Positions 4,206-26,418 of a stretch of DNA of 64,000 nucleotides are shown here, piece by piece. The translations under genes were made by a program, and so were the position numbers. The first letter of the stretch is position 1; each line of letters opens with the position of its first letter. The notes below the pieces were generated by a model. The model was not told the origin of the DNA, made no database searches, and saw nothing but the letters and a program-made list of their open reading frames with translations. The DNA is from an uncultured Dehalococcoidaceae bacterium (GTDB lineage: Bacteria; Chloroflexota; Dehalococcoidia; Dehalococcoidales; RBG-16-60-22), in contig CAYZOI010000001.1 in NCBI GenBank assembly GCA_964480145.1, forward strand, positions 4,530 to 68,529, written 5' to 3'.

Positions 4206-4237
4206 ATAATCAGAAATCAGTATAGTCCGCTTATATT

Positions 4238-4981: not shown

Positions 4982-4990
4982 CTCCTCGGG

Positions 4991-5935: not shown

Positions 5936-5956
5936 ACTGAATCGGAGGGGAAGACC

Positions 5957-6157: not shown

Positions 6158-6177
6158 AATCTGCGTTTCCTCTTACT

Positions 6178-6705: not shown

Positions 6706-6776
6706 CTCCTCACCAGCCAGTTCATTCCATTATAAGGCAAGCGGCGTATTCGCCGCAAGCTCGGTAAAGCGTGATA

Positions 6777-7379: not shown

Positions 7380-7383
7380 TGGA

Positions 7384-8379: not shown

Positions 8380-8390
8380 ACCTTTTAACT

Positions 8391-11642: not shown

Positions 11643-12314
11643 TCATTTTTGTCCGTCACTGTATTGCCCCCGGTACTCTTCGGGCAACAGTTCAGCAATA
11701 CGTCCCATTATGGAATGGGTGAACTCTGCAAGCTGCACCCGGGTCACTTTGCCGTTTACCGATGAAAGGTTAAACGGGCAACCGATATTCACCGTGACTT
11801 TGGGACGGCGCAACCACCAGGTCAAGCCCGTTATCTTTTCAGTGCCGTGAATTCCCACCGGCAATATAGGCACACCGTTACGCACCGCAATGAGCGCGGC
11901 GCCGGAAAAAGCGTCAATCATCTGCCCTTCCAGGCTGCGCCGGCCCTCCGGAAAGACAATCAGCGCCATTCCCTCGCCGAACCACCGCTCGGCAAAGCGC
12001 AGCACATCCCGGTTCATACCGCCGCGCCGTATCGGAAAAGCGCCGTAGTTGCCGACAATGTACTTCTTAATCCGGGTACGGAATAATTCCTCCTTGGCCA
12101 GAAACATCGACCGCCTTTTGATACTGAGGCCCATTATCGGCGGGTCGGTCAGGCTCATGTGGTTCGCCGCCACCAGTAACGGCCCCTCAGCCGGAATATG
12201 CTCCCGCCCCAGCACCCGCCAGCGAGTAAAGAGGAACAGAACCACCCGGGTAAAAAAACGGCCTACGTAATATATCCAGTGCATTTTGTACTCTACAAAA
12301 ACTGTACTTTTCAA
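11643..12314 (-). CDS. plsC: 1-acyl-sn-glycerol-3-phosphate acyltransferase
   Basis: 223 aa. HX4D motif NHMSLTD and FPEGRRS motif. The start may be the Met at residue 11. Confidence 0.85.
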   Translation of the reverse strand: MKSTVFVEYKMHWIYYVGRFFTRVVLFLFTRWRVLGREHIPAEGPLLVAANHMSLTDPPIMGLSIKRRSMFLAKEELFRTRIKKYIVGNYGAFPIRRGGMNRDVLRFAERWFGEGMALIVFPEGRRSLEGQMIDAFSGAALIAVRNGVPILPVGIHGTEKITGLTWWLRRPKVTVNIGCPFNLSSVNGKVTRVQLAEFTHSIMGRIAELLPEEYRGQYSDGQK

Positions 12315-12368
12315 TTATAACGGCGAGCCAGGCTAAAAACAATTGATAAGGGCAACCACGCATTAGAG

Positions 12369-14135
12369 CTAGAGAATCACGTTCAGCAGCCCGCCCACGG
12401 CGAGGGATGCGATAATCATGACGGCAGACGCTTTGAGCAGCCCCTTCACACCCAGCTCCCGGAAAAGCACCACGAAGGTGGCGATGCAGGGAAAGAACAT
12501 CGCCAGAACTACACAGCCGATAACCAGCTGCCCCGAGGTTAGCGCCAGCGGTGCCAGCATGCCCACGGCCACGTCTTTGCGCAGGAAGCCTACCGCCAGC
12601 GCCACCACCGCTTCCTTGGGCAAACCCAGCAGGCCGGTGACGACCGGTGCCGTGAAATTGGCGATAGCATCGAAAACACCCAGTGCGTACAGTATGTTTA
12701 TCACCAGAACGGCGCCCAGAATAATCGGGATGGCCTCGCGCAGAAAACCATGAACCCTGAGCCACAGCTTCTGCAGCACGGTCCGCCACGGCGGCATTCG
12801 ATAGGGCGGTATCTCGATTAACAGCTCGGGGCTGAATCCCTTAACCATGCGGTTGAGAATAAAGCCAAGGACTATCCAGACGAGAAACAGGGTGCCGTAG
12901 ACAATGGCAACATATTGCAGGCCCCGCTCCCCCACCAGGCCGAAGACCATTGCCTGCAACGCGGCACAGGGCACGGCGATAGAGATAAGCGTGGCCGCGA
13001 TGAACCTCTCCCGTTTGCTTTCCAGTATCCTTGTCGCCAGAACTGCCGGCACGTTGCAGCCGAGTCCCAGCAGCGTGGGAATAATAGCATAGCCGTGAAG
13101 TCCCAGCCGGTGCATGATGGTATCCATAAGCACGGCCAGACGCGGCAGGTAACCGACGTCCTCCAGCAGCCCGAGCACCAGATAGAAAGCGATGATATAG
13201 GGGAGTACCATGGCAAAAGGCACATAGAGCCCGGTGGTCAGCAGGCCAAACGATTCTATGTAATTGACTTCACCAACGATGGTACTGCCAAGCAGCACGT
13301 CATGGAGAATACCAGAGCCTCCCATAAGATTGCTGAAAAAAAGTATCACCGGCGTCCAGAGGTGCTCGAACAGGGGGTCCAGAACATAGCCAATCAGGCT
13401 CTCCCCGATGAAGCGGATGCCGAGGAACATGCCAACGAGAACCACCGCGGCGATTATAATTCCGGTAAAGGGACGGACACTGGCATCCTCCAGGCGCTCC
13501 AGCCAGGTATGGTGACGGTGGGTGACACGCTGCACGTGTTCCACAATGTTGCCAATCGCCTGCCAGCGCTCATCATGACTGCGAGGCGGCAATCCTGGCA
13601 CGCTGGCTACAGGAATACTCTCTACCAGTTCCTTTATTCCCTGCCCGGTTATCGCCACTGTGGGGATAACCGGGACGCCGAGCAGCTCTTCAAGCCGTTT
13701 TAAATCAATGCTTATGCCGCGGTGGCCGGTGTCGTCCCACATATTCAGGGCGACGACCATCGGAACGCCTTTTTCCAGCAACTGGAGCGTCAGGTTGAGG
13801 TTTCTCTCCAGGTTGGTGGCATCAACCACATTGATGACCACATCGCCGGTGGCGAGCATTCGCAAAGCGATTTCTTCCGCCTCACAGGTTGGTTCCAAGC
13901 CGTAGGTCCCGGGCACATCAACCACTTCCGCCGTATCGTCCCCGACCTTCATCTGTCCATGCGTGTAACCAACCGTGGTGCCGGGATAGTTGGAGGCGAT
14001 AACCCGCACGCCGGTCATTCGTGAAAAAACGACACTCTTGCCAACATTGGGGTTGCCCATGAGGAGGATTTGTTTCAGGCCGCCCTTCTTCCCCCGGCGC
14101 TTTTTAACGTGTTTTCCCGTGCCGTGACATGCCAT
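12369..14135 (-). CDS. feoB: ferrous iron transporter FeoB (G-domain plus permease)
   Basis: 588 aa. G1 GNPNVGKS, G3 DVPG, then a polytopic membrane domain. Confidence 0.9.
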   Translation of the reverse strand: MACHGTGKHVKKRRGKKGGLKQILLMGNPNVGKSVVFSRMTGVRVIASNYPGTTVGYTHGQMKVGDDTAEVVDVPGTYGLEPTCEAEEIALRMLATGDVVINVVDATNLERNLNLTLQLLEKGVPMVVALNMWDDTGHRGISIDLKRLEELLGVPVIPTVAITGQGIKELVESIPVASVPGLPPRSHDERWQAIGNIVEHVQRVTHRHHTWLERLEDASVRPFTGIIIAAVVLVGMFLGIRFIGESLIGYVLDPLFEHLWTPVILFFSNLMGGSGILHDVLLGSTIVGEVNYIESFGLLTTGLYVPFAMVLPYIIAFYLVLGLLEDVGYLPRLAVLMDTIMHRLGLHGYAIIPTLLGLGCNVPAVLATRILESKRERFIAATLISIAVPCAALQAMVFGLVGERGLQYVAIVYGTLFLVWIVLGFILNRMVKGFSPELLIEIPPYRMPPWRTVLQKLWLRVHGFLREAIPIILGAVLVINILYALGVFDAIANFTAPVVTGLLGLPKEAVVALAVGFLRKDVAVGMLAPLALTSGQLVIGCVVLAMFFPCIATFVVLFRELGVKGLLKASAVMIIASLAVGGLLNVIL

Positions 14136-14150
14136 TCTCCCTCTCCTTCA

Positions 14151-14396
14151 TCACTGCTCTAGCTCAACGATAATTTTACTCGCCATGCCGAAACCAATCG
14201 CCAGCCGGGTACTGCCCAGCTGCACAGTTACCGGCCCCCGCATCAGCATCGAACTGACCTTGGTAATCTTTTTACCCGGCCTGATACCCAGAGCGTTGAG
14301 ACGGCTCACCAGTCCTGCTCCACCATCGATTTGCATCACTCTGCCACTCTGGCCGGGATACATTTGCCTCAGATTTATCTGCTTTTTTTCGGTCAT
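14151..14396 (-). CDS. feoA: FeoA-family protein
   Basis: 81 aa. SH3-like FeoA pattern (..G..v.i......rL..LGi.pG..i.v..). Directly upstream of feoB. Confidence 0.85.
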   Translation of the reverse strand: MTEKKQINLRQMYPGQSGRVMQIDGGAGLVSRLNALGIRPGKKITKVSSMLMRGPVTVQLGSTRLAIGFGMASKIIVELEQ

Positions 14397-14427
14397 ATGT
14401 CACCTTTTCTACAGAACCACGTCGCCC

Positions 14428-14850
14428 CTACCGCCGGGCCCGCTGACACCGGGCGCAGTAGCCGGCAACACGTATTTCCGTTTCTTCAATTTCGAAGCCT
14501 TTTGCTTCCGGAACTTCCTTTTTCAGATAGCTCGACAATGGGTAGCTGAATTCAATAACGCGTCCACAGCCAAGGCAGACCAGATGATAGTGTTCCCTGG
14601 TCGGCTTTACCTCATAATGATGATGGTTCTCACCGAAATGCAGCTCATCTATCAGGTCCAGCTCCTTCATCATCTGCAGGGTGCGATAGACTGTGGAGAG
14701 GCTGAGGCGCGGCTCCTTTTCACGGGCGCGACGAAATATCTCATCGGCGTCAAGGTGCCCCTGCCCCCGACGGATAATATCCATAATCAGGGCTCGCTGG
14801 CGAGTAGACCTCTTCCCGGCCCCATTCAGTTTTCTGCTACCCGTTGTCAT
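14428..14850 (-). CDS. fur: Fur-family metalloregulator
   Basis: 140 aa. Winged-helix N-terminus, HHHYEV, CLGCG..x..CARC zinc sites. Confidence 0.85.
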   Translation of the reverse strand: MTTGSRKLNGAGKRSTRQRALIMDIIRRGQGHLDADEIFRRAREKEPRLSLSTVYRTLQMMKELDLIDELHFGENHHHYEVKPTREHYHLVCLGCGRVIEFSYPLSSYLKKEVPEAKGFEIEETEIRVAGYCARCQRARR

Positions 14851-14879
14851 TTCATTGCCACCCTTAATATCTTAATGCT

Positions 14880-14898
14880 ATTGCAAATCATTTGCAAT
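14880..14898. promoter_or_regulatory. Fur-box-like operator, a perfect 9-1-9 palindrome ATTGCAAATCATTTGCAAT
   Basis: Read directly. 19 bp, AT-rich, centred about 39 nt upstream of the fur ATG and 4 nt downstream of the -10. Confidence 0.65.
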
Positions 14899-14902
14899 AA
14901 TA

Positions 14903-14931
14903 ATTATATATCATATGCCGTTTCCCGTCAA
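14903..14931 (-). promoter_or_regulatory. fur-feoAB promoter (TTGACG, 17 nt spacer, TATAAT on the minus strand)
   Basis: Reverse complement of 14926-14931 is TTGACG, and of 14903-14908 is TATAAT. Confidence 0.5.
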
Positions 14932-14954
14932 TTGGAAAGCCTTTCCAGTGTTTA

Positions 14955-16187
14955 TCACCGCTTGTGCAGCGCCGAAGCCCAGGAGAAAATGATGATGGCG
15001 ATTACTATAACCACAGCCGAATTAACCAGCAGCATGGTTGGTGCTCCCCAGAAGCTGGCACCGGCGCCGGTGAGCAGGTTGCCCAGTGGCAGTGTGCCAA
15101 CGGCAAACGCACGTGCCCCGGAAACCCTGCCTCGCATTTCCTCCGTAGACCACATCAGCAGCAGTGACTGAATAAGCACCATGCACATCCCCTGATTCAG
15201 TCCGGCTACAACCAGAATAATCAGAGACAGGGAAAAGAGGCGCGAGAAGGCGAAGAGCACCAGCATGGTCGGCCAGGCAATGGTTACCGCCACCAGCAGC
15301 CTTCCTCGACGTATCGAATAGGGCATTATAGCGACCAGGAACGGACCAACCGTATTACCAAGTCCAATCGCCGCCATGAGCTGGCTATAGCCAATTACCC
15401 CGGTGTGCAGAACATCCCGGGCAAATACCGGAATCAGGGTGAACCAGTACGGAAAGACAAAGAGGTTCACCAGGGCCGCAATCAGTATCAGTGCGGAAAG
15501 AGCCCGGTCCTGTCCCAAGTAGCGGAAGTCTGCCACCAGGCTCTGCCACATTGATTCCCGAGCCACCGGCACGAGTGGAGGTTCGATTTTCATTGGCAAA
15601 AGAGATAGAAAAGATAAGCAGAAGCTGGCGGCAACCAAGGCGAAGCAACCGCTGGCCCCGATAACCTCGAGCAGGCTCCCGCCGAGAAGCGGCCCCAGTA
15701 TAGTGGTACTGCCCTGCGCTACAAACAGGAGAGAAATGGCCGCGACCACGTGGTGTCTTTTCACGATATCGGCAGCGGCGGCATGCCGGGTGGAATAATC
15801 AAATGTGTATGATACGCCACCTACCAGGGTGAACAGAAAGAGATGCCATACCTCAAGCTGTGAGGTCTGGAATAACGCCATGATAATCAGGGCGCTGACA
15901 GCGTAAACCACCTGCACTGCGATAAGAATCTTACGCCTGTTAAAGCGGTCGGCAATGGTACCACAGAAAGGTCCCAGCAGCATGGAAACAAAACGACAGG
16001 CCCCCAGCAGACCAACCAGCAAAGGGGAATCCGTCATCTCCAGAACCAGCCAGGCACCGACCACCGTTTCCATCCAGCGGCCAATAAAAGTACCCATTGA
16101 AGAGATGAAAAGAAGGCGGAACTGCGGATAGTGCCAGGCGGCCAGAAACTGGCGGCGTTCCGTGGAGGGGGCTTCAGCTTCAGACAA
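14955..16187 (-). CDS. MFS transporter (EntS / transmembrane-secretion-effector-like)
   Basis: 410 aa with about 12 hydrophobic segments. N-terminal ..FRLLFISS.GTFIGRWM.. resembles the MFS_3/EntS family. Confidence 0.75.
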   Translation of the reverse strand: MSEAEAPSTERRQFLAAWHYPQFRLLFISSMGTFIGRWMETVVGAWLVLEMTDSPLLVGLLGACRFVSMLLGPFCGTIADRFNRRKILIAVQVVYAVSALIIMALFQTSQLEVWHLFLFTLVGGVSYTFDYSTRHAAAADIVKRHHVVAAISLLFVAQGSTTILGPLLGGSLLEVIGASGCFALVAASFCLSFLSLLPMKIEPPLVPVARESMWQSLVADFRYLGQDRALSALILIAALVNLFVFPYWFTLIPVFARDVLHTGVIGYSQLMAAIGLGNTVGPFLVAIMPYSIRRGRLLVAVTIAWPTMLVLFAFSRLFSLSLIILVVAGLNQGMCMVLIQSLLLMWSTEEMRGRVSGARAFAVGTLPLGNLLTGAGASFWGAPTMLLVNSAVVIVIAIIIFSWASALHKR

Positions 16188-16205
16188 TATCAGCCCCCAC
16201 AGGCC

Positions 16206-17024
16206 TCAGGCCCCCAACCTGTTTTTAATTTCGGGCATGGCTTTTTGTGCCGCCAGTTCACCCTGCTTGATGCACTCCCGGGCATGATGGTAATCACCCG
16301 CCCCGATATGCGCAACGTCCGGTTCAATCACGACGTCGGCTTTTTCCAAACCCGACCTCACCAGCGAATAGGTGCCAATGTGTATGGATTGAACCAGGAC
16401 ATGGAGGATATTTGGCTCCCTGGCGCCCTTCGTGCTTCTCTCAATTGATTGGTGTGCCCGGTCAAGCACGTCGGGGATAACATTGACCGCAATGATGAAA
16501 TCGGCGCCCATTTCTCTGGCAAGGCTCACCGGCACCGGGTTGGTCAGGCTGCCATCCACCAGGTGTCTGCCTCTCCGCTTCACCACGGTGAATATCCCCG
16601 GCAGGGAAATGCTGGCCCTGACCGCTTCTACCACGGAACCCCGGTCGAGCACAACCGCTTCCCCGGTATCAATATCGGTCGCGGTGCAGGCGAACGGTAT
16701 CAGTAAATCGCTGAATTTGATATTGCCGCCGAGGAGCGAGGTCAGCAGGTTGCTGAACTTCTTCCCCTTGATGAGCCCGGTCCTGGGCAGGGCTGGGTCA
16801 ATGAACTGGGTCAGCCTGCGCCGTGAAAGTTCGATGGTTTTTTCTTTGATGAGGCCGACGTTTATGCCCCGCGCATAGAGCGAACCAACCGCGGCCCCGA
16901 CGCTCGTGCCGGCAATCAGGTCAATGGGAATGCCCTCTTTCTCCAGAACGGTCAGTACACCGATATGCGCCATTCCCCGCACCGCACCACCCCCCATTGC
17001 CAGTCCGACCTTTGGCTTCGGCAA
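16206..17024 (-). CDS. patatin-like phospholipase
   Basis: 272 aa. GGGAVRG oxyanion motif, GTSVGA serine lipase motif, DG(S) Asp motif. Confidence 0.85.
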   Translation of the reverse strand: MPKPKVGLAMGGGAVRGMAHIGVLTVLEKEGIPIDLIAGTSVGAAVGSLYARGINVGLIKEKTIELSRRRLTQFIDPALPRTGLIKGKKFSNLLTSLLGGNIKFSDLLIPFACTATDIDTGEAVVLDRGSVVEAVRASISLPGIFTVVKRRGRHLVDGSLTNPVPVSLAREMGADFIIAVNVIPDVLDRAHQSIERSTKGAREPNILHVLVQSIHIGTYSLVRSGLEKADVVIEPDVAHIGAGDYHHARECIKQGELAAQKAMPEIKNRLGA

Positions 17025-17504
17025 TTAACCCCTCCTCAAGAACCAGGGACTGATATTGACGATTTTGCCCCGGTAATAGAACAAAATCATGATGCCAAGG
17101 ATAAGCATCACAATATCGATATAAAGCGCGCCGGCGATAGACAGCTTTAACTGTACCCATCTTTCCGCCTCACCAAAACAGCCGCAGGGCTTGTCGCCAA
17201 GCCCCTGAATGAGCAGTATGGTGTTATTGGCAATCAGGCCGACGGTAAGTGCCAGCGCAAAGGAAGCCACCAGTCGGGCGATACTGCCGGTGATGAGGAG
17301 CACGCCAATTAAAATCTCGACGCTGGGCAACCACCGGAAAATGAACTTGTCCAGCGCGATGGGCAGGAACTCCGGAAAAACGAAAATGACAAACGAATCC
17401 GTCTGGCTGAGAGTTTTCCCCAGACCGGCGGCCAGAAAAATAAGGCCCAGAATAATACCCGCGCCGATAGCTAACCAGTTAGCACGTGTCATGATATCAC
17501 ACAC
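17025..17504 (-). CDS. MauE/DoxX-like integral membrane protein
   Basis: 159 aa with 4 hydrophobic segments and a CGCFG motif typical of MauE-type proteins. Abuts the patatin start codon. Confidence 0.5.
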   Translation of the reverse strand: MCDIMTRANWLAIGAGIILGLIFLAAGLGKTLSQTDSFVIFVFPEFLPIALDKFIFRWLPSVEILIGVLLITGSIARLVASFALALTVGLIANNTILLIQGLGDKPCGCFGEAERWVQLKLSIAGALYIDIVMLILGIMILFYYRGKIVNISPWFLRRG

Positions 17505-17540
17505 CTCAATTGTTTGTGTTTCCGGTGGCGGGCCAGCCCC

Positions 17541-19151
17541 TCATCCCCACAGTTCTTCGATGTCTTTTTCCGCCTGTTTCCCGCCTTCGGCCTTTCCCGC
17601 AGTAAGAAATTCCTTATAAGACTGTGGTGAGCCGTACTCCCTCGTCTGGATGACCACCGGCATCGGCACGGCATGTCCGAAAATGAGCGCCTGCTGTTTT
17701 GACTCCAGCCGGGAGAGCACCGATTTCAGAGCACCTTTGCCGGAAACACCGGCGAGGACACTGTCAACATCCCGCTCGTTGTCGAGCAGGCAGGTGATTT
17801 TGGTGCCCATCTGCGACATCACCTCAGCGTCTATGCCGCTGGGACGCTGGTCAATGACCAGCAGTGTTACATTGTATTTTCTCATCTCGCGGGCGATAGT
17901 GCCGAAAATGGTCCGGGCGGCAACCTCCGGGTTCAGAAACCGGTGTGCCTCTTCAATGGTTATGACCAGCGGCTTGGGCTTGGTGGTCTCCTCACCCATC
18001 GCCTTCTCCATCCGGTCGCGGTACTGGGAGTGAATCCGCCGCGTCAACAGATTGGCCACCAGAATGTAGGCGGTGGTATCGGTGTAGCGGCCAAACTCCA
18101 GGACGACGTTTATGCCCCGGTCAAGGTATTCCAGAACGCGCGCGACCGCATTATCCGGGGCCTGGGGCTCGATGAAAGGGAGGCGGCTTATCGTGGCCAG
18201 TCCCCTCTTTAAATTCTGAAAGGTGCTTTCGTGGATAGCCAACTCATTTAATAACCGACTGGTTTCCTCGGAATCGGGCATGTCTGCGGCCTGCTGCAGC
18301 CAGTTCCTGCCGAATCGACGCCGCAACTGGTAAATGGCTTCCACGGCCGGCTCGGTGAGGTTCAGGGTCTGGCGCAGCAGCGCCATGTCCTCCGGCTCTA
18401 TCTCATCGTAGCCAATCCGGACAACAAAATCGGTGCTCACCTTTCTCCGTCGCGAGCTTTCCTCGTCAAGGGTGAACACTGCCACCTTCGAGGGAAATAG
18501 CTGCTTCAATCCCTTGACGGAACGCCCCCCCTCGCTCGTCCCCGCCCAGCCGTACTCGTTGTGCATGTCGAAAATCAAATTCACCGCGGCGCTCTTCTGC
18601 AGCATGCCGATGAGCAGGATGCGGGTGAGGAATGTCTTGCCCGTGCCGCTCTTGCCGAAGATGCCGTTGGAGCGTTTGACCAGTTCCGGCAGGTCGAGGC
18701 ATATCTTGGTCTCCATATCGAGCGGCGTTCCCACGTAAAACCTCTTTTCGTCCTCGCCGCCGAAGACGAGCTCAACATCCGCCTGCGAGGCCAGGTTGAC
18801 CACCGAGAAATGGCTGGGCACGGTTTTTACCGGCTTCGGCCCTTCTACCAGGTCCGCCACGTCGCCGCTGATGGTGAGCATGGGTAGTACGTGCAGGATA
18901 CCGTAGGTGCTCGTGCCGGAGAGCACTTCAGAAACAAAGGGATCTGTAATATCGGGCGGCGTCAGCGTAAACCGCGGGTCAATGACGCCCAGCTCGATAT
19001 CGGTTATCATGCCGAAAAAGCGCTGTCTCTGCCCCTCTATGGTGACGTAGCGACCTACCGCCATGTCCTCCACCGATACCGTCCCATCGAGCTTTACCTC
19101 AACGCCGCTCTCCAGCGAGCCGGAGACAACAACGCCCAATCTATCCGTCAT
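17541..19151 (-). CDS. herA: HerA-like (DUF87) hexameric ATPase/translocase
   Basis: 536 aa. N-terminal beta-barrel-like segment (GVVVSGS..VGRYVTIEG..FFGMITDI), Walker A GKSGTGKT, Walker B ITIEEAHRF, VIDQRPSGID. Confidence 0.8.
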   Translation of the reverse strand: MTDRLGVVVSGSLESGVEVKLDGTVSVEDMAVGRYVTIEGQRQRFFGMITDIELGVIDPRFTLTPPDITDPFVSEVLSGTSTYGILHVLPMLTISGDVADLVEGPKPVKTVPSHFSVVNLASQADVELVFGGEDEKRFYVGTPLDMETKICLDLPELVKRSNGIFGKSGTGKTFLTRILLIGMLQKSAAVNLIFDMHNEYGWAGTSEGGRSVKGLKQLFPSKVAVFTLDEESSRRRKVSTDFVVRIGYDEIEPEDMALLRQTLNLTEPAVEAIYQLRRRFGRNWLQQAADMPDSEETSRLLNELAIHESTFQNLKRGLATISRLPFIEPQAPDNAVARVLEYLDRGINVVLEFGRYTDTTAYILVANLLTRRIHSQYRDRMEKAMGEETTKPKPLVITIEEAHRFLNPEVAARTIFGTIAREMRKYNVTLLVIDQRPSGIDAEVMSQMGTKITCLLDNERDVDSVLAGVSGKGALKSVLSRLESKQQALIFGHAVPMPVVIQTREYGSPQSYKEFLTAGKAEGGKQAEKDIEELWG

Positions 19152-19753
19152 TTCAGCCTCCCCAGAATCGCTCTGAGCTGATTGAACTGCCCGCCGAGCA
19201 TAACGGCCAGCTCTTTGCCCGCCGCCACCAGAAAGCCGCGCGGGTCTTCCTGCGACTGGCTCATCAGGCGCAGGGCAGCGGGCACGATTTCGTCAACGGC
19301 TACGGGCAGATGAGCGCTCACCAGCATATTTAGAAACGCCAGCGACCGCCCAAACTCTTTTATCTCATCGGTAGAACACTGATAGACAAAGTCGTGGAGT
19401 CGCGCCGGACCGGGCGGCAGGTACTGGTTTATATTGTCCCCTATTTTATGTCCCACCACCAGCGCGCTGAACTCGCTGCGGAGCAGTTTTGAAAGCTGAG
19501 GGCTGGACTGGTAGATGGCCGCCTCGCTATCCTCATCTTTGCCGCGGGCGATGGGCCTTCTCCCCGGCTCCAGGCTGCCGGTGGTAGCGTGGTAGACGAT
19601 GCCGTAGATGTCCAGCTCACCGTCTTTCGTTTTCACCAGGCTGCCCAGAGGCGGCAGCTCATAAAGCTCGTAGCACTGCGCGGTAAAGCCCGCCGTGCTG
19701 GCTTCTATAATTTCACCGACTCTATCTGCTAAACTGGAGTTAATCAGTCTCAC
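19148..19753 (-). CDS. hypothetical 201-aa protein with a HAS-barrel-like N-terminus, coupled to herA
   Basis: ATGA stop/start overlap with herA at 19148-19151. N-terminus VGEIIEASTAGFTAQ..LGSLVKT..IYGIVYH fits a small beta-barrel pattern. The GTG start is embedded in AGGAGGTGA, so the exact start is uncertain. Confidence 0.6.
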   Translation of the reverse strand: MRLINSSLADRVGEIIEASTAGFTAQCYELYELPPLGSLVKTKDGELDIYGIVYHATTGSLEPGRRPIARGKDEDSEAAIYQSSPQLSKLLRSEFSALVVGHKIGDNINQYLPPGPARLHDFVYQCSTDEIKEFGRSLAFLNMLVSAHLPVAVDEIVPAALRLMSQSQEDPRGFLVAAGKELAVMLGGQFNQLRAILGRLK

Positions 19754-19770
19754 CTCCTGTGGTACTCTAT

Positions 19771-19855
19771 TCCCTCTTTGGAAAAGGGGGATAAAGGGGG
19801 ATTTGCAATCCCTCTCAATCTCCCTTCAGGAAAGGGAGAGGTCAAATCTCTCTTA
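19771..19855. repeat. G/C-tract hairpin repeat element (left flank of the low-GC cassette)
   Basis: Hairpins TCCCTCTTTggaAAAGGGGGA (19771-19791) and TCTCCCTTcaggaAAGGGAGA (19819-19839). Tandem AAAGGGGGAT x2 (19783-19802). The 3' part (19831-19855) resembles 21189-21215. Confidence 0.55.
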
Positions 19856-19867
19856 TTCTACTGTCTC

Positions 19868-19933
19868 TTACTTCCCTTTCTTGTCTTTCTTCTGCTTGGC
19901 TTTCTTTACGTTTTTTCTGCCTTTACTGCCCAT
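19868..19933 (-). CDS. 21-aa lysine-rich micro-ORF (MGSKGRKNVKKAKQKKDKKGK)
   Basis: Hand-translated. AGGAG lies 8 nt upstream of the ATG, and the ORF starts 23 nt after the DUF2130 stop. No homology is known to me. Confidence 0.25.
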   Translation of the reverse strand: MGSKGRKNVKKAKQKKDKKGK

Positions 19934-19956
19934 TTTATATCTCCTGACTTGACTTG

Positions 19957-21081
19957 TTAATTACTCTCAGAATCATTACCTGACGCAAGTAGCTGTAAAC
20001 CTTTGATCTGAGGTAGTAATGCTCGGCCAATTATGCCTCTTATGTCTGAATAGAATCCCGTTGCCCCTTTGATAGCCTTTTCTATTTCCTTCTTTCGTGT
20101 ATTCCAAATGCCCTCCATGGCACGTCTCTCTTGGTCAATGTCTTCCTGCATTGCGAGAAGTGCTTCCACAACAGGTTCTATTCTTTGTTTGAATTCTGGG
20201 CCTGCGAAGTAAGCATAAAGAGCTTCTATCTTTTGGTCTCTACCTTCCAAAGAAAGCCGATTATTAGTTATTTCGATTAAGCTAAACCTAAGAACATCAG
20301 AAAGGCAACACGCTACTGGTAGGCGTGCAACCCATACATTTTCAACCATACCAAAAGTCGTTACATTTTCTGGAGTCACTATGGAAGCGATGGCGGCAAT
20401 ATCAGCTTTTTTATCTCTTTGGTCGTTCTTTAGTTTTGGTATCCAACTAGTGTTCCAACTCGCAGTATTCTTGGATTCCCAGAGGATAGTTCCACATAAT
20501 TGCATATTATTATTTTTGTCTTTTACTTTCTGTATTATATCAGCACCTTTTGCTCCCCTTTTTACAATTTCTATATCATCTTCTGGGAAACTGGACTCAA
20601 GCATCCGCTCGAGCTCATACTGTAAGGCGTCGCCTTTAATTTGAGGTGAAATTTGTTCGGATTTCTCTTGGAGTTCTTTAATTTTTGTCAGAAGTTCCTT
20701 ATTCTCATAATCTTTCTCCACGATTTTTTTATTATACTCATCACTAAGTTTTTTCTTTTCTTCATCTACTTTACGGTCGACTTCCAAATCAAGTTCCTTT
20801 TCTCTGGCGTCTACTTTCTTAAGTCTATTTCTTAAACTACGCTCAACGTCTTGTGACTCTTTGAGTTTCTTTTCAGATTGATTTAGTTCGCTCTGAAGTT
20901 CTTCAATAGCCCGATTTGCTTCCTTCGTAGCCTTTTCCTTCTCTGCATCCAATTTCGGTTTCAACCCAGCTTCCCATTGCTTTTTCCACTCTTGTTGAAA
21001 TGGATAAAGAACTGTATCTGCTAGTTGAAACTCTGCTCCACATTTAGGGCAAGTGATTAGATTACTCGTTGTCTTAACCAT
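19957..21081 (-). CDS. DUF2130-type protein: N-terminal Zn ribbon, long K/E coiled coil, conserved C-terminal domain
   Basis: ORF track 19957..21105. ATG21081 (MVKTTSNLITCPKCGAEF) is preferred because GGAGG lies inside the longer version. C-terminus ..GAKGADIIQKV..GTILWESKNT..W..WIPKLKNDQ.. matches my memory of DUF2130. The gene is conspicuously AT-rich. Confidence 0.7.
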   Translation of the reverse strand: MVKTTSNLITCPKCGAEFQLADTVLYPFQQEWKKQWEAGLKPKLDAEKEKATKEANRAIEELQSELNQSEKKLKESQDVERSLRNRLKKVDAREKELDLEVDRKVDEEKKKLSDEYNKKIVEKDYENKELLTKIKELQEKSEQISPQIKGDALQYELERMLESSFPEDDIEIVKRGAKGADIIQKVKDKNNNMQLCGTILWESKNTASWNTSWIPKLKNDQRDKKADIAAIASIVTPENVTTFGMVENVWVARLPVACCLSDVLRFSLIEITNNRLSLEGRDQKIEALYAYFAGPEFKQRIEPVVEALLAMQEDIDQERRAMEGIWNTRKKEIEKAIKGATGFYSDIRGIIGRALLPQIKGLQLLASGNDSESN

Positions 21082-21158
21082 TGCTCTTTTCCCTCCTTTT
21101 CCCACTTATGCTATTTTTTAAGGCAAGCTTAAAGTGGTTTAGCCCCTTCAAAACTTAT

Positions 21159-21215
21159 CCTCCCCCTCTCCTCCTAGGATAGGGGGGCAAAGAGGGTGAG
21201 GCCAAAATTCTCTTA
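21159..21215. repeat. G/C-tract hairpin repeat element (right flank of the low-GC cassette)
   Basis: Imperfect hairpin CCTCCCCCTCT (21159-21169) / AGAGGGTGAGG (21191-21201). 21189-21215 (AAAGAGGGTGAGGCCAAAATTCTCTTA) aligns by hand with 19831-19855. Confidence 0.5.
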
Positions 21216-21353
21216 CCCTGCCGCCTGTCCCAGGTAGAAAGGCCAGACCACTATCCCCAGGATAATCTTCCACCATACCAGCTCCGCATAGCCGATGGTG
21301 AACAGCCAGCCGATGAACCATATAATGCCGAATCCGGGTCCACTGTGCTTCAT
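21213..21353 (-). CDS. 46-aa membrane micro-protein (MKHSGPGFGIIWFIGWLFTIGYAELVWWKIILGIVVWPFYLGQAAG)
   Basis: Hand-translated. AGGAGG lies 7 nt upstream of the ATG. Two hydrophobic, Trp-rich segments. Different frame from the listed 75-aa ORF 21148..21375. Confidence 0.55.
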   Translation of the reverse strand: MKHSGPGFGIIWFIGWLFTIGYAELVWWKIILGIVVWPFYLGQAAG

Positions 21354-21396
21354 TTTTTCCCTCCTTCTTTAACATCGCGGTGAGTTTAATAATATA

Positions 21397-22596
21397 TTAC
21401 ACCCACCTCGTCCGCTTGCTAAAACTCTTGGCGGAGGTGAGGGTGGGGATTTTTTCCTCAACGCAGAGTGCTTCCACCAGCTGCCAGAACTCGGCGCGGT
21501 CGGCACCGGTGACCACCGCCTGCTCGTGGGCCTCACTCAAAGCCACCGGGTAGCCCTGCCCCCTCTGGCACTGGTCAAGGAGCAAAGCGTGCGCCGTGTC
21601 CAGCAAGTCTGGGTTTTCCGCCACCCAGCGCGGCAGCTCCACCCGCGCCACCTCTTCCTCAAGCCGTATGTAAAAGAAATAAACCCTGTGTTCGCCGTAA
21701 CGTTCCTTCGTTATCTTGGACGGGCTTACGAACAGCGCCGACCTCTCGCCCGGCTCTAATACATCCATGAAGAGTTCACGGTCGGTTACGCCGGCCACGC
21801 CTTCGCAGTCCCTATCTTTATTGGGCGGGCAGAAGCGGTCGCAGTCGGCCACCTCGTGCGGGCAGATGGCCACCCGCAGGACGTTGACCACATCTGTACT
21901 CCTGGGAAAACTGATGTAGCTGGCCAGCGCCATCTTCTTATCCCGGTTTTGCTTTCTCATCTCTTCCAAGCAAAGTAAAAAGCCATTGCCCAGCAGCGCC
22001 TCGGTGACGAAGTCGGGAAACGCCTCCAGTCCCCAAAGAATCAAAGTGCCATCGAGCAGCGCCAGAGTGCTGCTGCCCGGGGGCTGTTCCGCAGCCAGCG
22101 CAGACAGGTGGCGGCATTCCTCAACGGCGCGCTTGATGCCGAGCAATGTTCCTTCCACCACCTGCTCACGACCGCTCGCCGCCGCCGGCTTTATCACCAG
22201 GTCTTCATCTTCAGCGTAGAGGTGCGGGGCACTATCCAGCAGGGCATCTGGTTCGTCGCCGTACCTGAGAGCAACGGTACCGATGTTTATCAGGTAGCAC
22301 CGCGTGGAACGATGCCGGTCAACGTCAATATGGGAGCCATCGGCAGCCATCACGCTGAACGCGGCGGGGAGGGGCGGCGCCGGGTATCGTTCCGCCAGTC
22401 CGTCGCACAGCTCCGCCACCAGCCACGTGGTCCGGCTGGCCGCGACTTTCCTCTTCAGTTTCTCCAGGTCAATGGCTTCATCGCCAAAGATTTGCCGCGC
22501 GTACTGAAGTCGCTGCTGCCTTTCGGCACGGCCTTCCTTCAGGCGCACCACCATGTTGCTGGCCTGCGAGGCTATCTTGGTTAAATCCAGTGACAC
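21397..22596 (-). CDS. nurA: NurA-domain 5'-3' nuclease-like protein
   Basis: 399 aa. ..VMAADGSHIDVDRH.. (NurA D-G-S motif) and C-terminal ..GQGYPVALSEAHEQAVV.. (NurA GYP..L..AH motif). GTG start. Confidence 0.7.
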   Translation of the reverse strand: MSLDLTKIASQASNMVVRLKEGRAERQQRLQYARQIFGDEAIDLEKLKRKVAASRTTWLVAELCDGLAERYPAPPLPAAFSVMAADGSHIDVDRHRSTRCYLINIGTVALRYGDEPDALLDSAPHLYAEDEDLVIKPAAASGREQVVEGTLLGIKRAVEECRHLSALAAEQPPGSSTLALLDGTLILWGLEAFPDFVTEALLGNGFLLCLEEMRKQNRDKKMALASYISFPRSTDVVNVLRVAICPHEVADCDRFCPPNKDRDCEGVAGVTDRELFMDVLEPGERSALFVSPSKITKERYGEHRVYFFYIRLEEEVARVELPRWVAENPDLLDTAHALLLDQCQRGQGYPVALSEAHEQAVVTGADRAEFWQLVEALCVEEKIPTLTSAKSFSKRTRWV

Positions 22597-22696
22597 CCTT
22601 TTTCCCTCTACGGCAAAGTATAATTCATCACTGGAATGAACTCAAGCCAGTAAGACACCGAAAGCAAGGGTATGATATGATGAGAGGGAGGTTCAC

Positions 22697-23308
22697 ATGC
22701 TTCCAATCCTGCTGAGCGTTGCCGTTATCTCCTTCTCCGGGGTAATGATGCCCGGCCCCATGCTCGCCGTCACCCTGGCGAAAAGCTACAGGTCACCGTG
22801 GGCGGGAGTCTGGATTTCCCTCGGGCACGCCGTTATTGAAGTCCCTCTAATACTACTCATCTACTTCGGTTTCGCCCAGTTCTTTCAGGTTACTGTTGTG
22901 CGGCTGGCGCTGAGCGTGGCGGGCAGCGGCATGATAATCTGGATGGGCGTGAGCATGTTCCGCGCCCGCAGCGAGGTTGCCAGAAAAAGGAAGGACCTGC
23001 CTTACAACGCCTTCGCCGCCGGCATTCTGACCAGCGTCTTCAACCCTTTTTTTCTGGTCTGGTGGGCGACCATCGGCAGCATGCTCATTATGCGCATCCT
23101 CGAATTCGGCACGATGGGTCTTATTGTCTTCACCATGGTGCACTGGCTGTGCGACCTCACCTGGCTGACACTGGTATCCAACGTTATTTACCGGACGCAC
23201 GCCTTCTGGAACCAGCGCGTGCAGGAGTGGCTTTTCATTGCCTGCAGCCTGCTACTGGTTGGCTTCGGCATCTGGTTTCTGGTGTCGGGCATCAGGCTTG
23301 TGATTTAG
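22697..23308 (+). CDS. LysE/RhtB-family amino-acid exporter
   Basis: 203 aa with 5-6 TM segments. N-terminal ..PGPM.. and ..NP..W.. motifs. Confidence 0.8.
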   Translation: MLPILLSVAVISFSGVMMPGPMLAVTLAKSYRSPWAGVWISLGHAVIEVPLILLIYFGFAQFFQVTVVRLALSVAGSGMIIWMGVSMFRARSEVARKRKDLPYNAFAAGILTSVFNPFFLVWWATIGSMLIMRILEFGTMGLIVFTMVHWLCDLTWLTLVSNVIYRTHAFWNQRVQEWLFIACSLLLVGFGIWFLVSGIRLVI

Positions 23309-23317
23309 AGGTGAATT

Positions 23318-24352
23318 ATGAAAGCGGGTTATGTTTACGACCCCATATATCTGAAGCATGAAACCGGCTATCACCCGGAAAATGCCAAACGCCTGGAAGC
23401 GGTTATGGCTCACCTTGAGGAAACGGGGCTGATAGAGCAGCTAACGCCGGTCAACCCTCGCCCGGCCACCGCGGAAGAGCTGAATTATGTCCACCGGGCA
23501 TCGTATGTCTCGCGCATCAAGGATGCGGCGTCAGAGGGCATTGACTGGCTTGACGCCGACACGGTAATGTCGCCGGACTCCTACGATGCCGCGCGGTATG
23601 CCGCCGGCGGCGCCATTGAGGCAACCGATGCCGTCATCAGCGGCAAGGTGAGCAGTGCTTTTGCCCTGGTCAGACCCCCCGGCCACCACGCCACTGCAAC
23701 GGCGGCCATGGGTTTCTGCCTCTTCAACAACATCGCCATCGCCGCCCGGCATGCCCTCAAGAAACAAAAGCTGGAAAAAGTCGCCATCATCGATTTTGAC
23801 GTGCATCACGGCAATGGCACCCAGGAAGCCTTCGACAGCGACCCTCAGGTCCTTTATATCTCTGCCCACCAGTACCCTCACTATCCGGGCAGCGGGACCA
23901 TTTACGAGACCGGGAGCGGTGCCGCGCAGGGCAGCAAGGTCAACATCCCCCTGCCCGCTGGTTCCGGCGATGATGAATACCGGCAGGTTTTTGAGCAAAT
24001 CATCGTGCCGGTTACCAAACGTTTCCGCCCTGAGCTTATCCTGGTGTCCGCCGGCTATGACCCGCACCGGGCAGACCACCTGGCCATGATGGAGGTCAGC
24101 GTCACCGGCTTCGCCGAGATGGTAAGAACCATCAAGGGACTGGCCGACGAATTCTGCGCTGGGAAACTAGTTTTCACTCTTGAGGGCGGCTACAACCTGA
24201 AAGCGCTGGCGACGTCGGTGAAGGCCACCTTCGATGTCCTCCTCGGCAATCCGGATATCGAAGACCCGCTGGGGCCACCGAAGCGCCGGTGGGCAGCGCC
24301 GGACATCAGCTCACTGATTAAGGAGATAAAGAAAATACATAAAATTGCCTGA
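23318..24352 (+). CDS. histone-deacetylase-family (Zn-dependent) deacetylase, AcuC/HDAC-like
   Basis: 344 aa. RPPGHHA, DFDVHHGNGTQ, ..EGGY.. motifs. Confidence 0.85.
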   Translation: MKAGYVYDPIYLKHETGYHPENAKRLEAVMAHLEETGLIEQLTPVNPRPATAEELNYVHRASYVSRIKDAASEGIDWLDADTVMSPDSYDAARYAAGGAIEATDAVISGKVSSAFALVRPPGHHATATAAMGFCLFNNIAIAARHALKKQKLEKVAIIDFDVHHGNGTQEAFDSDPQVLYISAHQYPHYPGSGTIYETGSGAAQGSKVNIPLPAGSGDDEYRQVFEQIIVPVTKRFRPELILVSAGYDPHRADHLAMMEVSVTGFAEMVRTIKGLADEFCAGKLVFTLEGGYNLKALATSVKATFDVLLGNPDIEDPLGPPKRRWAAPDISSLIKEIKKIHKIA

Positions 24353-24373
24353 GGTATTCTAAAGAGTAATAAG

Positions 24374-24520
24374 ATGCTCAAGGATTTGATATTTTATACG
24401 GTTGCCGCTAATGTGATTGCCCTAATTGCAGTACTTGTCGGGGCAAGTCTGGCTGTAATACTGTTTTCGTCTTTGCTGATTCCGCCGGTTATTCTTATTG
24501 TCTGGAGAATTATCCGCTGA
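24374..24520 (+). CDS. possible 48-aa membrane micro-protein
   Basis: Hand-translated as MLKDLIFYTVAANVIALIAVLVGASLAVILFSSLLIPPVILIVWRIIR. The SD is weak, so this is speculative. Confidence 0.2.
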   Translation: MLKDLIFYTVAANVIALIAVLVGASLAVILFSSLLIPPVILIVWRIIR

Positions 24521-24572
24521 ACAGACTGCCCTCAGTGGCCACCGCATTCCTGCGCAGCATAAAAAGCCTGCC

Positions 24573-25487
24573 TCAGGGCTTATCATGCCGCAAATCCGGC
24601 GGGATGGGGCACCGCTCACACTTCTCCTCGCAGGGTTCAACATGAATTACCACGCTGGCATGCTGTAATTTGCTCTTGATATCCCGTTCCAGATGGTCAC
24701 ACATCTGGTGCGCTTTTTCGATGCTGATATTTTTCGGCATTACCAGATGCAAATCAATGTAACGCTGCCTGCCCGCTTTCCGGGTACGCAGGGCATGAAA
24801 ATCAACCAGTTCCCCGATATGCTCCATTATGGCTGCTTTGACAATATTTTCTTCGTCTTCCGGCAACTTGACATCAATCAGCCCGCCGAATGACTTTTTC
24901 ATCACGTCATAACCTGACTTAAAAATGACCAGAGAAACCAGCAGCGCAATTATCGGGTCAATGATGGCGAGGCTGGTGAAACGGATGATAATCAGCCCCA
25001 CCAGTACGCCCGCTGCCGAGTAAACATCCGCGGCAATATTACGAGCATTGGCCTCGAATGCCACCGAATCGGTGGTCTTTGCTACTTTGAGCAGGTACTT
25101 TGACAGGAAAACGCTGACAATGATGGAAACCAGCATCATGCCTATACCGGCTTCCGTCAATTCAAGGGTTGCCCCGGTGATAATGCGGCGTATCGCTGAA
25201 TATATAATCAGGCCGCCGGCGGCAAAAATCAGTGTCGCCTGCGCCACCGCCGCTATATTTTCCACTTTGCCATGGCCGAAAGGGTGCTCTTCATCAGCGG
25301 GCCTGGCAGCGACCACAACGGCAAAAAAGGTAATGGTGATGGCGAACAAATCCAGAAAACTGTCTGCCGCCTGGGCAAGAACACTGATGCTCCCCGTGAT
25401 GACCCCCACCGCCACCTTGAACACTATCAGTCCTGTAACTACGCCCAGAGAAAGCTTGGCGGCGCCTCTTCTGGTGGCAAGCATCAT
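24573..25487 (-). CDS. cation diffusion facilitator (CDF) metal efflux transporter
   Basis: 304 aa with 6 TM segments and a cytoplasmic C-terminal domain. ..DSFLD.. and ..HGKVE.. motifs. Confidence 0.85.
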   Translation of the reverse strand: MMLATRRGAAKLSLGVVTGLIVFKVAVGVITGSISVLAQAADSFLDLFAITITFFAVVVAARPADEEHPFGHGKVENIAAVAQATLIFAAGGLIIYSAIRRIITGATLELTEAGIGMMLVSIIVSVFLSKYLLKVAKTTDSVAFEANARNIAADVYSAAGVLVGLIIIRFTSLAIIDPIIALLVSLVIFKSGYDVMKKSFGGLIDVKLPEDEENIVKAAIMEHIGELVDFHALRTRKAGRQRYIDLHLVMPKNISIEKAHQMCDHLERDIKSKLQHASVVIHVEPCEEKCERCPIPPDLRHDKP

Positions 25488-25494
25488 TCCCTAC

Positions 25495-26418
25495 CTATTT
25501 CACGGCTTTTGCCCGCGCGAAGGGCAGCCAGCTGATGAACCGCCTCCACTCCCTCTTATCCCAGACCACCAGCATCGTCGGGGCTATGCAGATGGAACTG
25601 AATGTCCCGGCGATAATGCCAATGATGAGAACAGCAACCAGGTTCTGGATGGTGGCGCCAACGAAGAACAGCAGCGCCAGGACTACAATCATCGTGGTAA
25701 GGCTGGTGTTGACAGAGCGCCCGAGCGTTTCTACAAGGCTGTTGTTGACCACCGCCTCAAAGTTAACGCTGATGTCCAGTCGCAGGTTTTCCCTTATCCG
25801 GTCAAAGATGACCACGGTGTTATTTACGCTGTAGCCAATCACCGCCAGAATACCGGTGATGAACATCATGTTTACCTGCCAGTTCAGTATGCCGCCGAGA
25901 ATGGAGAAAACTCCCAGCGCCACCACCGCATCGTGAACGAGGGCGATGATGGCACAGGTGCCGTAGTGGAAAGGCTTGGGCATGCGGCGGAACGCCCAGG
26001 TTACGTACAGCAGTATACCCAGCGCCGCCACCGCCACCGCGATAACCGCCGTCCGCACCGTCTCGGTGGCTATCAGCGGTGATACCGATGAGAACTCGGG
26101 CTCGGTGAGCTGGCCAAACCTGGCTTCAAGCCCGGCTTCCAGCGCTTCCTTATCCTCTGCGTTCAGCTCTATGGTACGTATCAGGTAGTCGCCGGCACCG
26201 GTGCGCTGTACAATCACGTTATCATGACCGAGGTCAGCCAGCGCCACTTCAAGTTCGCCCTGTTCGACTTCCTGCTCAAAGTCGACGGTGAGCATCGAGC
26301 CGCTGCTGAATTCAATTCCCGTTTTCAGGCCGAAGGTCAGCAGGGAGAGAACCCCGAGAAGGATAACCACTCCCGATATCAGAAAGAACCTGAATCTTTT
26401 ACCGACAATATCAAACAT
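25495..26418 (-). CDS. secF: protein translocase subunit SecF
   Basis: 307 aa. SecD/SecF family C-terminal 6-TM core. Overlaps the secD end by 8 nt. Confidence 0.9.
   Translation of the reverse strand: MFDIVGKRFRFFLISGVVILLGVLSLLTFGLKTGIEFSSGSMLTVDFEQEVEQGELEVALADLGHDNVIVQRTGAGDYLIRTIELNAEDKEALEAGLEARFGQLTEPEFSSVSPLIATETVRTAVIAVAVAALGILLYVTWAFRRMPKPFHYGTCAIIALVHDAVVALGVFSILGGILNWQVNMMFITGILAVIGYSVNNTVVIFDRIRENLRLDISVNFEAVVNNSLVETLGRSVNTSLTTMIVVLALLFFVGATIQNLVAVLIIGIIAGTFSSICIAPTMLVVWDKREWRRFISWLPFARAKAVK

Follow-up and report, generated by a model that had tools for sequence, protein, structure and literature searches.

A conserved free-standing HAS-barrel protein encoded between nurA and herA, a possible third component of the bacterial NurA–HerA machine

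The HAS-barrel (PF09378) is the N-terminal domain of the HerA-type ATPases. HAS stands for HerA-ATP synthase, and the crown of the F1/V1-ATPases is the domain class from which the name is derived. This crown, formed by the N-terminal β-barrels of the α- and β-subunits, is a ring-shaped collar above the ATPase tier, as described in PMC3326311. In the solved archaeal and Deinococcus complexes, the HAS-barrel face of HerA is the docking surface for the NurA dimer, and a keyword search of PMC3326311 and PMC9960219, in which this docking is described, finds no mention of a third subunit. HerA hexamers are also found in the anti-phage complexes Sir2–HerA/Nezha (8J4U, 8SUB) and DUF4297–HerA (8ZIQ, 9C1M), where the hexamer is combined with a partner from an adjacent gene. 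Throughout the structural and biochemical literature that was found, HerA–NurA is taken as a two-protein machine, and no account of a third subunit or of a stand-alone HAS-barrel was found in it; Iyer et al. are said to have defined the HAS-barrel in 2004 (in NAR), and that paper might mention solo barrels.

A widespread bacterial lineage departs from this two-protein picture. The window, which is the whole stretch of 64,000 nucleotides of an uncultured Dehalococcoidaceae bacterium that was analysed, shares the core genes herA and nurA with the HerA–NurA systems of S. solfataricus (4D2I), D. radiodurans (7WRW) and T. kodakarensis (9X1M). Unlike these two-component systems, it has a third conserved gene between nurA and herA, which is coupled to herA (Table 1). 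What sets it apart is a nonenzymatic gene retained between those for nuclease and motor, the product of which appears to be a free copy of the surface on which NurA usually docks.

Table 1. Positions of the features of the nurA–herA locus in the window
Feature	Position	Strand	Description and basis
herA-like ATPase gene	17541..19151	-	536 aa; own HAS-barrel (residues 6-98), DUF87 central domain, Walker A GKSGTGKT
Small gene	19148..19753	-	Free-standing HAS-barrel protein; 201 aa from GTG 19753, 198 aa if ATT 19744 is the start
ATGA, small-gene stop codon that overlaps the herA start codon	19148..19151	-	Translational coupling (sequence)
C-terminal five-helix bundle	19154..19372	-	Residues 128-200; AlphaFold2 secondary structure
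GGGGAGG, Shine-Dalgarno for herA	19157..19163	-	Within the conserved C-terminal codons of the small gene (LGRLK)
N-terminal HAS-barrel domain	19379..19723	-	About residues 11-125; Pfam and Foldseek
ATT, probable near-cognate start	19742..19744	-	5 nt past the AGGAGGTGA motif; locus comparison
AGGAGGTGA, Shine-Dalgarno-like motif	19750..19758	-	Holds the sole canonical in-frame start, GTG
Micro-ORF MGSKGRKNVKKAKQKKDKKGK	19868..19933	-	21 aa, lysine-rich; a short distance upstream of the small gene; translation
nurA nuclease gene	21397..22596	-	399 aa; Pfam NurA 1.5e-27

The front half of the small protein is predicted to copy the HAS-barrel of HerA, and this is supported at the level of the family and of the fold. 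The Pfam HAS-barrel model matches residues 12–77 of the window protein with E = 0.014 and 15.9 bits (gathering cut-off 25.2 bits). When 73 diverse relatives are compared with the model, 33 match it at E ≤ 0.1, the strongest at 2e-9, and the relative P0247 scores above the gathering cut-off, with 27.1 bits. Many distant relatives also carry a precomputed PF09378 match. The AlphaFold2 model, calculated with an alignment of the 73 diverse sequences (pLDDT 95.5, pTM 0.89), supersedes an earlier run on 34 close homologues (pLDDT 69); in this model the barrel strands are formed by residues 11–18, 22–27, 39–43, 47–60, 91–104, 107–109 and 122–125, with residues 77–90 being helical. When compared with the PDB by Foldseek, the best 50 matches are all HerA chains (E from 9e-7 to 2e-4, 126–150 aligned columns), among them those of the T. 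kodakarensis HerA–NurA complex (9e-7), of S. solfataricus HerA (2e-6) and of D. radiodurans HerA (4e-5), and none of the 50 is an ATP-synthase chain. The HerA chains of the anti-phage complexes are also among the best structural matches, and superimposing the model on the HerA N-domains 8zit_Q, 8ziq_N and 9c1m_Q gives rmsd values of 2.1–2.5 Å for about 130 residues (2.3 Å over 132 columns for 8zit_Q). No match at E ≤ 0.001 is found among viral structures (BFVD). The β-barrel resembling HerA N-domains, which had been suggested as a check in the preliminary description of this locus, is clearly present in the predicted structure.

The likeness to the N-terminus of the adjacent HerA, which was the starting point of that description, holds at the level of the family and the fold and not pairwise. 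BLASTP gives no in-register match between the two proteins (best E = 0.82, with unrelated segments), so that a recent duplication of the 5' end of the adjacent herA is rejected. By profile comparison the similarity is marginal: hhalign pairs the N-domain (residues 8–118) with residues 1–109 of HerA at E = 0.013, and the family profile pairs residues 35–63 with HerA residues 31–59 at E = 0.015, in the same pairing as noted earlier. Sequence searches of the PDB, using either the single protein or the 73-sequence family profile, give nothing meaningful. The family also differs from the PF09378 barrels by a loop of its own, PGRRPxARG, which is basic, invariant and the most conserved loop of the family (PGRRPIARG, residues 63–71 of the barrel domain of the window protein).

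The view that the protein is a HAS-barrel and nothing else is correct for the N-terminal part, and the remaining residues are predicted to form a separate bundle of five helices. For this bundle no relative is found by PDB sequence search, Pfam or NCBIfam, and the possibility that it is a fragment of HerA is rejected, because hhalign finds no match between it and full-length HerA. In HerA and ATP synthase the HAS-barrel heads an ASCE P-loop ATPase domain, whereas in the small protein no P-loop or ATPase domain is detected with Pfam or NCBIfam and the helical bundle is found instead.

Homologues of the small protein number 3324, in 737 clusters at 50% identity, and the full-length homologues, which are counted in thousands, come from no fewer than three or four phyla, including Dehalococcoidia, SAR202 and other Chloroflexota, Dadabacteria, Thermodesulfobacteriota and some Armatimonadota. 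The dN/dS of the gene is 0.10–0.20 when compared with six close loci; it is under purifying selection and is a real gene. The protein family is unnamed at present, and neither Pfam nor NCBIfam contains a curated model for the whole protein. Some NCBI records title relatives "HAS-barrel domain-containing protein". Two relatives resemble chimeric or read-through gene calls and have been left out of the evidence for fusion: P0247, in which the C-terminus of NurA shares a single ORF with the small protein, and P0216, which carries a periplasmic-binding-protein tail.

The TGA of the 201-residue reading frame (19150–19148) overlaps the ATG of herA (19151–19149), and the GTG at 19753–19751 lies inside a perfect AGGAGGTGA (19758–19750), both as originally described. 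The doubt that had been raised about the start codon is justified, and the comparison of loci favours a start further downstream. The GGRGGTGAG motif is conserved in 15 window-type loci. At L023, L130 and L046 it is in a different frame, with the GTG out of frame, and at L023 and L046 the TGA of the motif is an in-frame stop; at all three, the sole in-frame start candidate upstream of the conserved domain is an ATA at the position of ATT 19744. This position is ATT, ATC or ATA in 15/15 window-type loci. From the sequence comparison it is probable that the near-cognate ATT 19744, rather than GTG 19753, is the real start. At the other end of the protein, residues A195–R199 are invariant among close homologues. 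A sole canonical start buried in a Shine-Dalgarno-like motif, and relatives with no canonical start at all, would also fit an ORF that is untranslated, or one that is left over from a duplication of the 5' end of herA and now decays without a function of its own. Either case is highly improbable in view of the low dN/dS, the thousands of full-length homologues in several phyla, the very confident AlphaFold2 model, the conserved C-terminal domain, which is absent from HerA, and the conserved translational coupling.

The HerA of the window matches the Pfam models DUF87 (1e-30) and HAS-barrel (6e-9), and its sequence relatives in the PDB are all HerA; its scores are far under the NCBIfam equivalog cut-offs, and it thus belongs to a divergent subfamily. 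The co-occurrence of the small protein with this HerA subfamily, proposed earlier as a test, is near-absolute in both directions. In 77/78 genome loci herA is immediately downstream of the small gene, with an NTGA overlap in 57 of the 78 (44 ATGA, 13 GTGA) and a spacing of −8 to +12 nt in about 10 more, and in 69/71 herA-seeded metagenome loci the small gene is upstream of herA. At L026 no herA follows the small gene; at L169 the gene order is small–97aa–herA.

The preliminary description regarded the small protein as a partner of HerA alone; its view of a free-standing HAS-barrel partner that is translationally coupled to HerA is retained, but nurA, which had been overlooked, is an equally faithful neighbour. 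It precedes the small gene at 96 related loci, and where the two genes are contiguous they always overlap or abut, with overlaps of 1–4 nt at L081, L085, L086 and L170. In the window, nurA and the small gene are ancestrally contiguous genes that have been parted by an inserted gene, and nurA is 1.6 kb upstream because of this 1.27-kb insertion. Elsewhere in the Chloroflexota nurA is often displaced by 1–4 kb of unrelated inserts, and at five Chloroflexota loci it is not found in the ~6 kb upstream of the small gene. The order at the distant locus L170 is nurA–small–herA–Mre11-like–Rad50-like, and its nurA–herA–mre11–rad50 cluster resembles the archaeal operon; in the ORF list of the window (12000–27000) no Mre11 or Rad50 genes adjoin the cluster. 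In four loci of Dadabacteria/Thermodesulfobacteriota there is a nurA–small unit (overlap of 4 nt at L085 and of 1 nt at L081, L082 and L086) with a convergent next gene, and no DUF87/HerA gene is present in the 6–10 kb downstream or in the upstream sequence examined. The NurA of these four loci is about 40% identical to that of the window, which is equal to the identity of a distant Chloroflexota locus. Within 6–8 kb of the small gene, neither nurA nor herA is found at the Armatimonadota-type loci. As nurA is upstream in 96 loci and is the sole neighbourhood partner in the Dadabacteria/Thermodesulfobacteriota clade, the small protein appears to be a partner of the NurA–HerA pair and not of HerA alone.

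As a partner of HerA alone, as first proposed, the small protein would supply free HAS-barrels that stack on the hexamer as a ring or cap, regulating its assembly, pore or ATPase independently of NurA. This is in agreement with the ATGA coupling and the near-absolute adjacency to herA, with HerA barrels being the closest structures to the barrel of the small protein, and with the five nurA-less small–herA loci and the arrangement at L169. We nevertheless find it quite unlikely, as it leaves unexplained both the nurA–small units without a neighbouring herA and the overlaps of the small gene with nurA. According to PMC3326311, HerA without its HAS-barrel still forms hexamers, so that HAS-barrels by themselves are not known to promote assembly of the ring.

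It is also conceivable that the small protein is primarily a partner of NurA, its HerA-mimicking barrel being bound to the HerA-binding surface of NurA, either as a decoy or regulator that restrains the nuclease until HerA engages, or as a passive platform on which NurA could act without an ATPase in lineages with no herA nearby. The four units lacking a neighbouring herA, whose NurA is so similar to that of the window, point in this direction, as does the binding of NurA to the HAS-barrel of HerA reported in PMC3326311 and PMC9960219. In the Chloroflexota, however, the tight, translationally coupled unit is small–herA, and nurA is often 1–4 kb away or absent from the ~6 kb examined, which makes a primary association with NurA somewhat unlikely.

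The HerA-like barrel, together with the near-constant place between nurA and herA, suggests that the small protein is probably a third part of a DNA-end-processing machine. More specifically, we tentatively favour a third, noncatalytic adaptor subunit of the bacterial NurA–HerA DNA-end-resection machine; its physical binding, its stoichiometry and its effect on resection are what we infer from the observed fold, conservation and genetic linkage to both partners. Such a subunit would be made together with HerA through translational coupling. Its site of action would be the side of the HerA hexamer that carries the HAS-barrels, where it would serve as an adaptor or collar in contact with NurA as well as HerA, using the barrel for one contact and the helical bundle for the other. 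In this model the basic, invariant PGRRPxARG loop is a candidate for contacting DNA or a partner. Several observations speak against an adaptor. The adjacent HerA already possesses a full HAS-barrel, so that nothing obvious is missing for the small protein to supply, and the characterised NurA–HerA complexes of Sulfolobus, Deinococcus and Thermococcus function with two components. The lone Armatimonadota-type genes, L026, the five nurA-less Chloroflexota loci and the marginal similarity to HerA are further points of this kind. As an adaptor or regulator, the small protein would have a bearing on how the two-fold NurA dimer is matched to the six-fold HerA ring and how this is controlled, and adding or omitting one small protein would be a simple handle in vitro.

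A more specific form of the adaptor proposal is that of a stoichiometric third subunit, for example with 6:6:2 HerA:HAS-barrel:NurA, in which a second barrel ring would lie between the motor and the nuclease, and which in Dadabacteria would be a HerA-independent, ATPase-less platform for NurA. We consider this unlikely; in comparison with the crown of the F1/V1-ATPases, a stand-alone ring of the small protein is hypothetical. Were the 6:6:2 assembly or the platform true, it would be the first example known in which the docking domain of an ATPase has been set free to act as a ring or adaptor protein in its own right.

By its genes, with a HerA and a partner encoded next to it, the locus is also similar to the Sir2–HerA and DUF4297–HerA systems, and the small protein could be the sensor or effector adaptor of a HerA-based anti-phage defence of this type rather than a DNA repair component. 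The window HerA gives partial matches to the PADLOC HerA models (best 6e-31), many of the Foldseek matches are defence HerAs, and mobile-looking inserts are present in the nurA/small-gene spacer (DUF2130 in the window, NTase/HEPN pairs at L087). A defence function is nevertheless very unlikely, since PADLOC and PHROGs give no match for either NurA or the small protein. The partners of the anti-phage HerAs are enzymes (NADase, nuclease), whereas the small protein lacks any catalytic domain, being by prediction a copy of the docking domain of HerA itself. Unlike the anti-phage systems, the window locus is conserved and chromosomal, with no Sir2/DUF4297 or PADLOC-matched partner. Its housekeeping synteny is conserved across Dehalococcoidia, with LysE, deacetylase and patatin-like genes flanking it in many of the ~80 related genome loci, and one relative (L170) is found within a nurA–herA–mre11–rad50 operon.

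In the region 17000–23000 an Rfam scan finds nothing, and the leader from the lysine-rich micro-ORF to the small gene is not predicted to fold more stably than shuffled sequences (z = −1.4), so that a structured RNA is not proposed. The micro-ORF has no Pfam match and is possibly in one operon with the small gene; micro-ORFs beginning with MG[ST]KGRKNVKKPK are present at the equivalent position in 27 related loci.

It is found that the small ORF between nurA and herA is a real gene. A search of a collection of 5.8 billion proteins gives 3324 homologues of its product (E ≤ 1e-3), which form 737 clusters at 50% identity and are nearly always about 190–205 residues long, and its dN/dS, calculated versus six close loci, is 0.10–0.20. 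Every organism-named homologue in this set belongs to Dehalococcoidia, SAR202 or other Chloroflexota. A distant clade (about 33–39% identity) is present in Candidatus Dadabacteria, Thermodesulfobacteriota and Armatimonadota, and some of its members are already named 'HAS-barrel domain-containing protein' by the NCBI pipeline. No model in Pfam or NCBIfam covers the whole protein.

The front two-thirds of the protein is predicted to be a HerA-type HAS-barrel, as indicated by the Pfam matches of the family and by the comparison of its model with known structures. The Pfam HAS-barrel model is matched by 33 of 73 diverse relatives (best 2e-9), the window protein itself scoring E = 0.014 and 15.9 bits, under the 25.2-bit cut-off. 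A first AlphaFold2 model, calculated with 34 close homologues, was poor (pLDDT 69); the second, calculated with 73 diverse representatives (pLDDT 95.5, pTM 0.89), has a β-barrel (residues about 11–125) that contains a short helical insertion, followed by five helices (128–200). When this model is compared with the PDB using Foldseek, the top 50 matches are all HerA chains, including HerA-NurA of T. kodakarensis (9.4e-7), HerA of S. solfataricus (2.4e-6), DUF4297-HerA (rmsd 2.1–2.5 Å over about 132 columns) and HerA of D. radiodurans (4e-5). Each top alignment spans about 126–150 columns, being the barrel; for the C-terminal bundle there is no PDB match by sequence, none to HerA and none among viral structures. 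The β-barrel expected from the preliminary description is thus seen in the model. The resemblance to the N terminus of the adjacent HerA, which that description had also noted, lacks significance in a pairwise BLASTP comparison and is marginal in profile-profile comparisons (residues 35–63 versus HerA 31–59, E = 0.015; residues 8–118 versus HerA 1–109, E = 0.013). On these grounds, a recent origin of the gene by copying of its neighbour herA was rejected.

On the minus strand of the window, nurA, a DUF2130 gene, the small gene and herA are four consecutive genes. The ORF coordinates, the overlap with herA and the position of the GTG codon inside AGGAGGTGA had been described correctly.

Features of the nurA–herA region in the window (whole-stretch numbering)
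Feature	Position	Strand	Remarks
nurA	21397-22596	-	Pfam NurA 1.5e-27
Spacer insert, 1.27 kb	21208-19934	-	carries DUF2130; 39% GC versus 58-61% in flanking genes
DUF2130 gene	19957-21105	-	ORF call and Pfam
Lysine-rich micro-ORF MGSKGRKNVKKAKQKKDKKGK	19868-19933	-	just upstream of small gene
Small ORF, 201 codons	19148-19753	-	
Candidate near-cognate start ATT	19744-19742	-	would give 198 aa
herA Shine-Dalgarno GGGGAGG	19157-19163	-	5 nt upstream of herA, within last codons of small gene
ATGA, small-ORF stop overlapping herA start	19151-19148	-	
herA-like ATPase	17541-19151	-	DUF87 1e-30; own HAS-barrel 6e-9; Walker A GKSGTGKT

The association with this HerA subfamily is seen from both sides. 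Of 80 genome loci fetched with the small protein, 78 have enough downstream DNA, and in 77 of these a herA of the same subfamily follows immediately, the single exception being L026. The two genes share a 4-nt NTGA overlap in 57 of those loci (44 ATGA, 13 GTGA); in the others the spacing is within −8 to +12 nt (about 10 loci) or there is a gap of 150–770 nt (nine loci). Among 80 metagenome loci fetched with HerA (54–94% identity), the small gene is directly upstream of herA in 69 of the 71 that could be assessed, and the two herA loci lacking it are among those with the most divergent HerAs. In one of these two, L159, a locus having no nurA match anywhere, a 280-residue ORF (4067–4909) with apparent DnaQ-like exonuclease motifs (DVETTG...) takes the place of the small gene. 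The small protein ends in an invariant ILGRLK, whose Gly-Arg codons give the GGGGAGG element, and since these codons supply the herA Shine-Dalgarno sequence, this peptide end may be under both a coding and a ribosome-binding constraint.

The ambiguity of the start codon, pointed out previously, is real. Most relatives start with ATG or TTG, 2–7 codons ahead of the conserved R11 (numbered from GTG 19753), whereas for fifteen loci, the window among them, the only such codon is a GTG lying within GGRGGTGAG; in the window, GTG 19753 is the sole canonical start, inside AGGAGGTGA (19758–19750). Three related loci (L023, L130, L046) keep the motif with its GTG out of frame, its TGA being an in-frame stop in L023 and L046; from the preceding stop to the conserved domain no canonical in-frame start is present, and the sole remaining in-frame candidate is an ATA, 4 nt past the motif. 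ATT, ATC or ATA is present at the same position in all window-type loci. As judged from these sequences, GGRGGTGAG is most likely a Shine-Dalgarno sequence and the true start a near-cognate AUH codon about 3–4 nt later. Residues 1–10 are poorly conserved and modelled with low confidence, so the fold assignment is independent of this choice.

The preliminary description overlooked NurA; in 96 loci nurA precedes the small gene. The spacer between them (median about 0.9 kb; shorter than 150 nt in 16 loci and 1 kb or longer in 44, up to 4.4 kb) is an insertion hot spot, gathering unrelated genes: NTase/HEPN toxin-antitoxin-like pairs and a CoA ligase in L087 (6788–9735) and a cNMP-binding gene in L026 (4219–5377). 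The DUF2130 segment, inserted between nurA and the micro-ORF, is absent from all 80 genome loci fetched first; L002 and L088, the closest relatives, have about 56 nt instead of it, and similarity begins again precisely at the ATG of the micro-ORF. With nothing inserted between them, nurA and the small gene overlap by 1–4 nt or abut (L081, L082, L085, L086, L170, L171). In L170, a distant relative, nurA, the small gene, herA, an Mre11-like gene (Metallophos) and a Rad50-like gene (SMC_N, zinc hook) form a five-gene operon (1316–8741), being an archaeal-type DSB-repair cluster with an added HAS-barrel gene. Four Dadabacteria/Thermodesulfobacteriota loci have a nurA-small unit followed by a convergent gene, with no herA within the 6–10 kb examined downstream. 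This arrangement favours a decoy or platform directed at NurA, one of the two main alternatives to the adaptor reading given below and less likely than that reading. In Armatimonadota-type loci the small gene stands alone, with neither nurA nor herA nearby; in L083 (1896–4868) and L172 (3795–6764) it is preceded by three paralogous ORFs in tandem (285–350 residues), which have only weak 4Fe-4S-like matches.

NurA, HAS-barrel and HerA are regarded as encoded by a three-gene module, the small gene being flanked by a nuclease gene on one side and a motor gene on the other in a conserved, chromosomal setting; the domain itself is recognised by automated annotation in some relatives. Flanking LysE, deacetylase and patatin-like genes recur across Dehalococcoidia, and PADLOC finds no defence-system signature for the small protein or NurA. 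No paper on a third subunit or stand-alone HAS-barrel beside nurA and herA was found in a search that did not include the 2004 domain-defining paper. NurA is established to dock on HerA at the face formed by the HAS-barrels, and a HerA deprived of this domain no longer binds NurA and is still a hexamer (PMC3326311, PMC9960219). Because NurA docks on this face, a HAS-barrel that stands free and carries an additional helical domain suggests, as the simplest though tentative reading, a non-catalytic adaptor or collar, which would be produced together with HerA and act at the NurA–HerA interface. A cap acting on HerA only, as proposed in the preliminary description and the second main alternative, is improbable.

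The micro-ORF occurs in 27 related loci (including L001, L003, L005–L007, L016, L019, L026, L029, L045 and L054), encoding 18–28 residues with a nearly invariant N terminus, MG[ST]KGRKNVKKPK, and having no Pfam match. Some copies end merely about 10 nt before the start of the small gene, and the operon may include the micro-ORF as a fourth, DNA-binding component.
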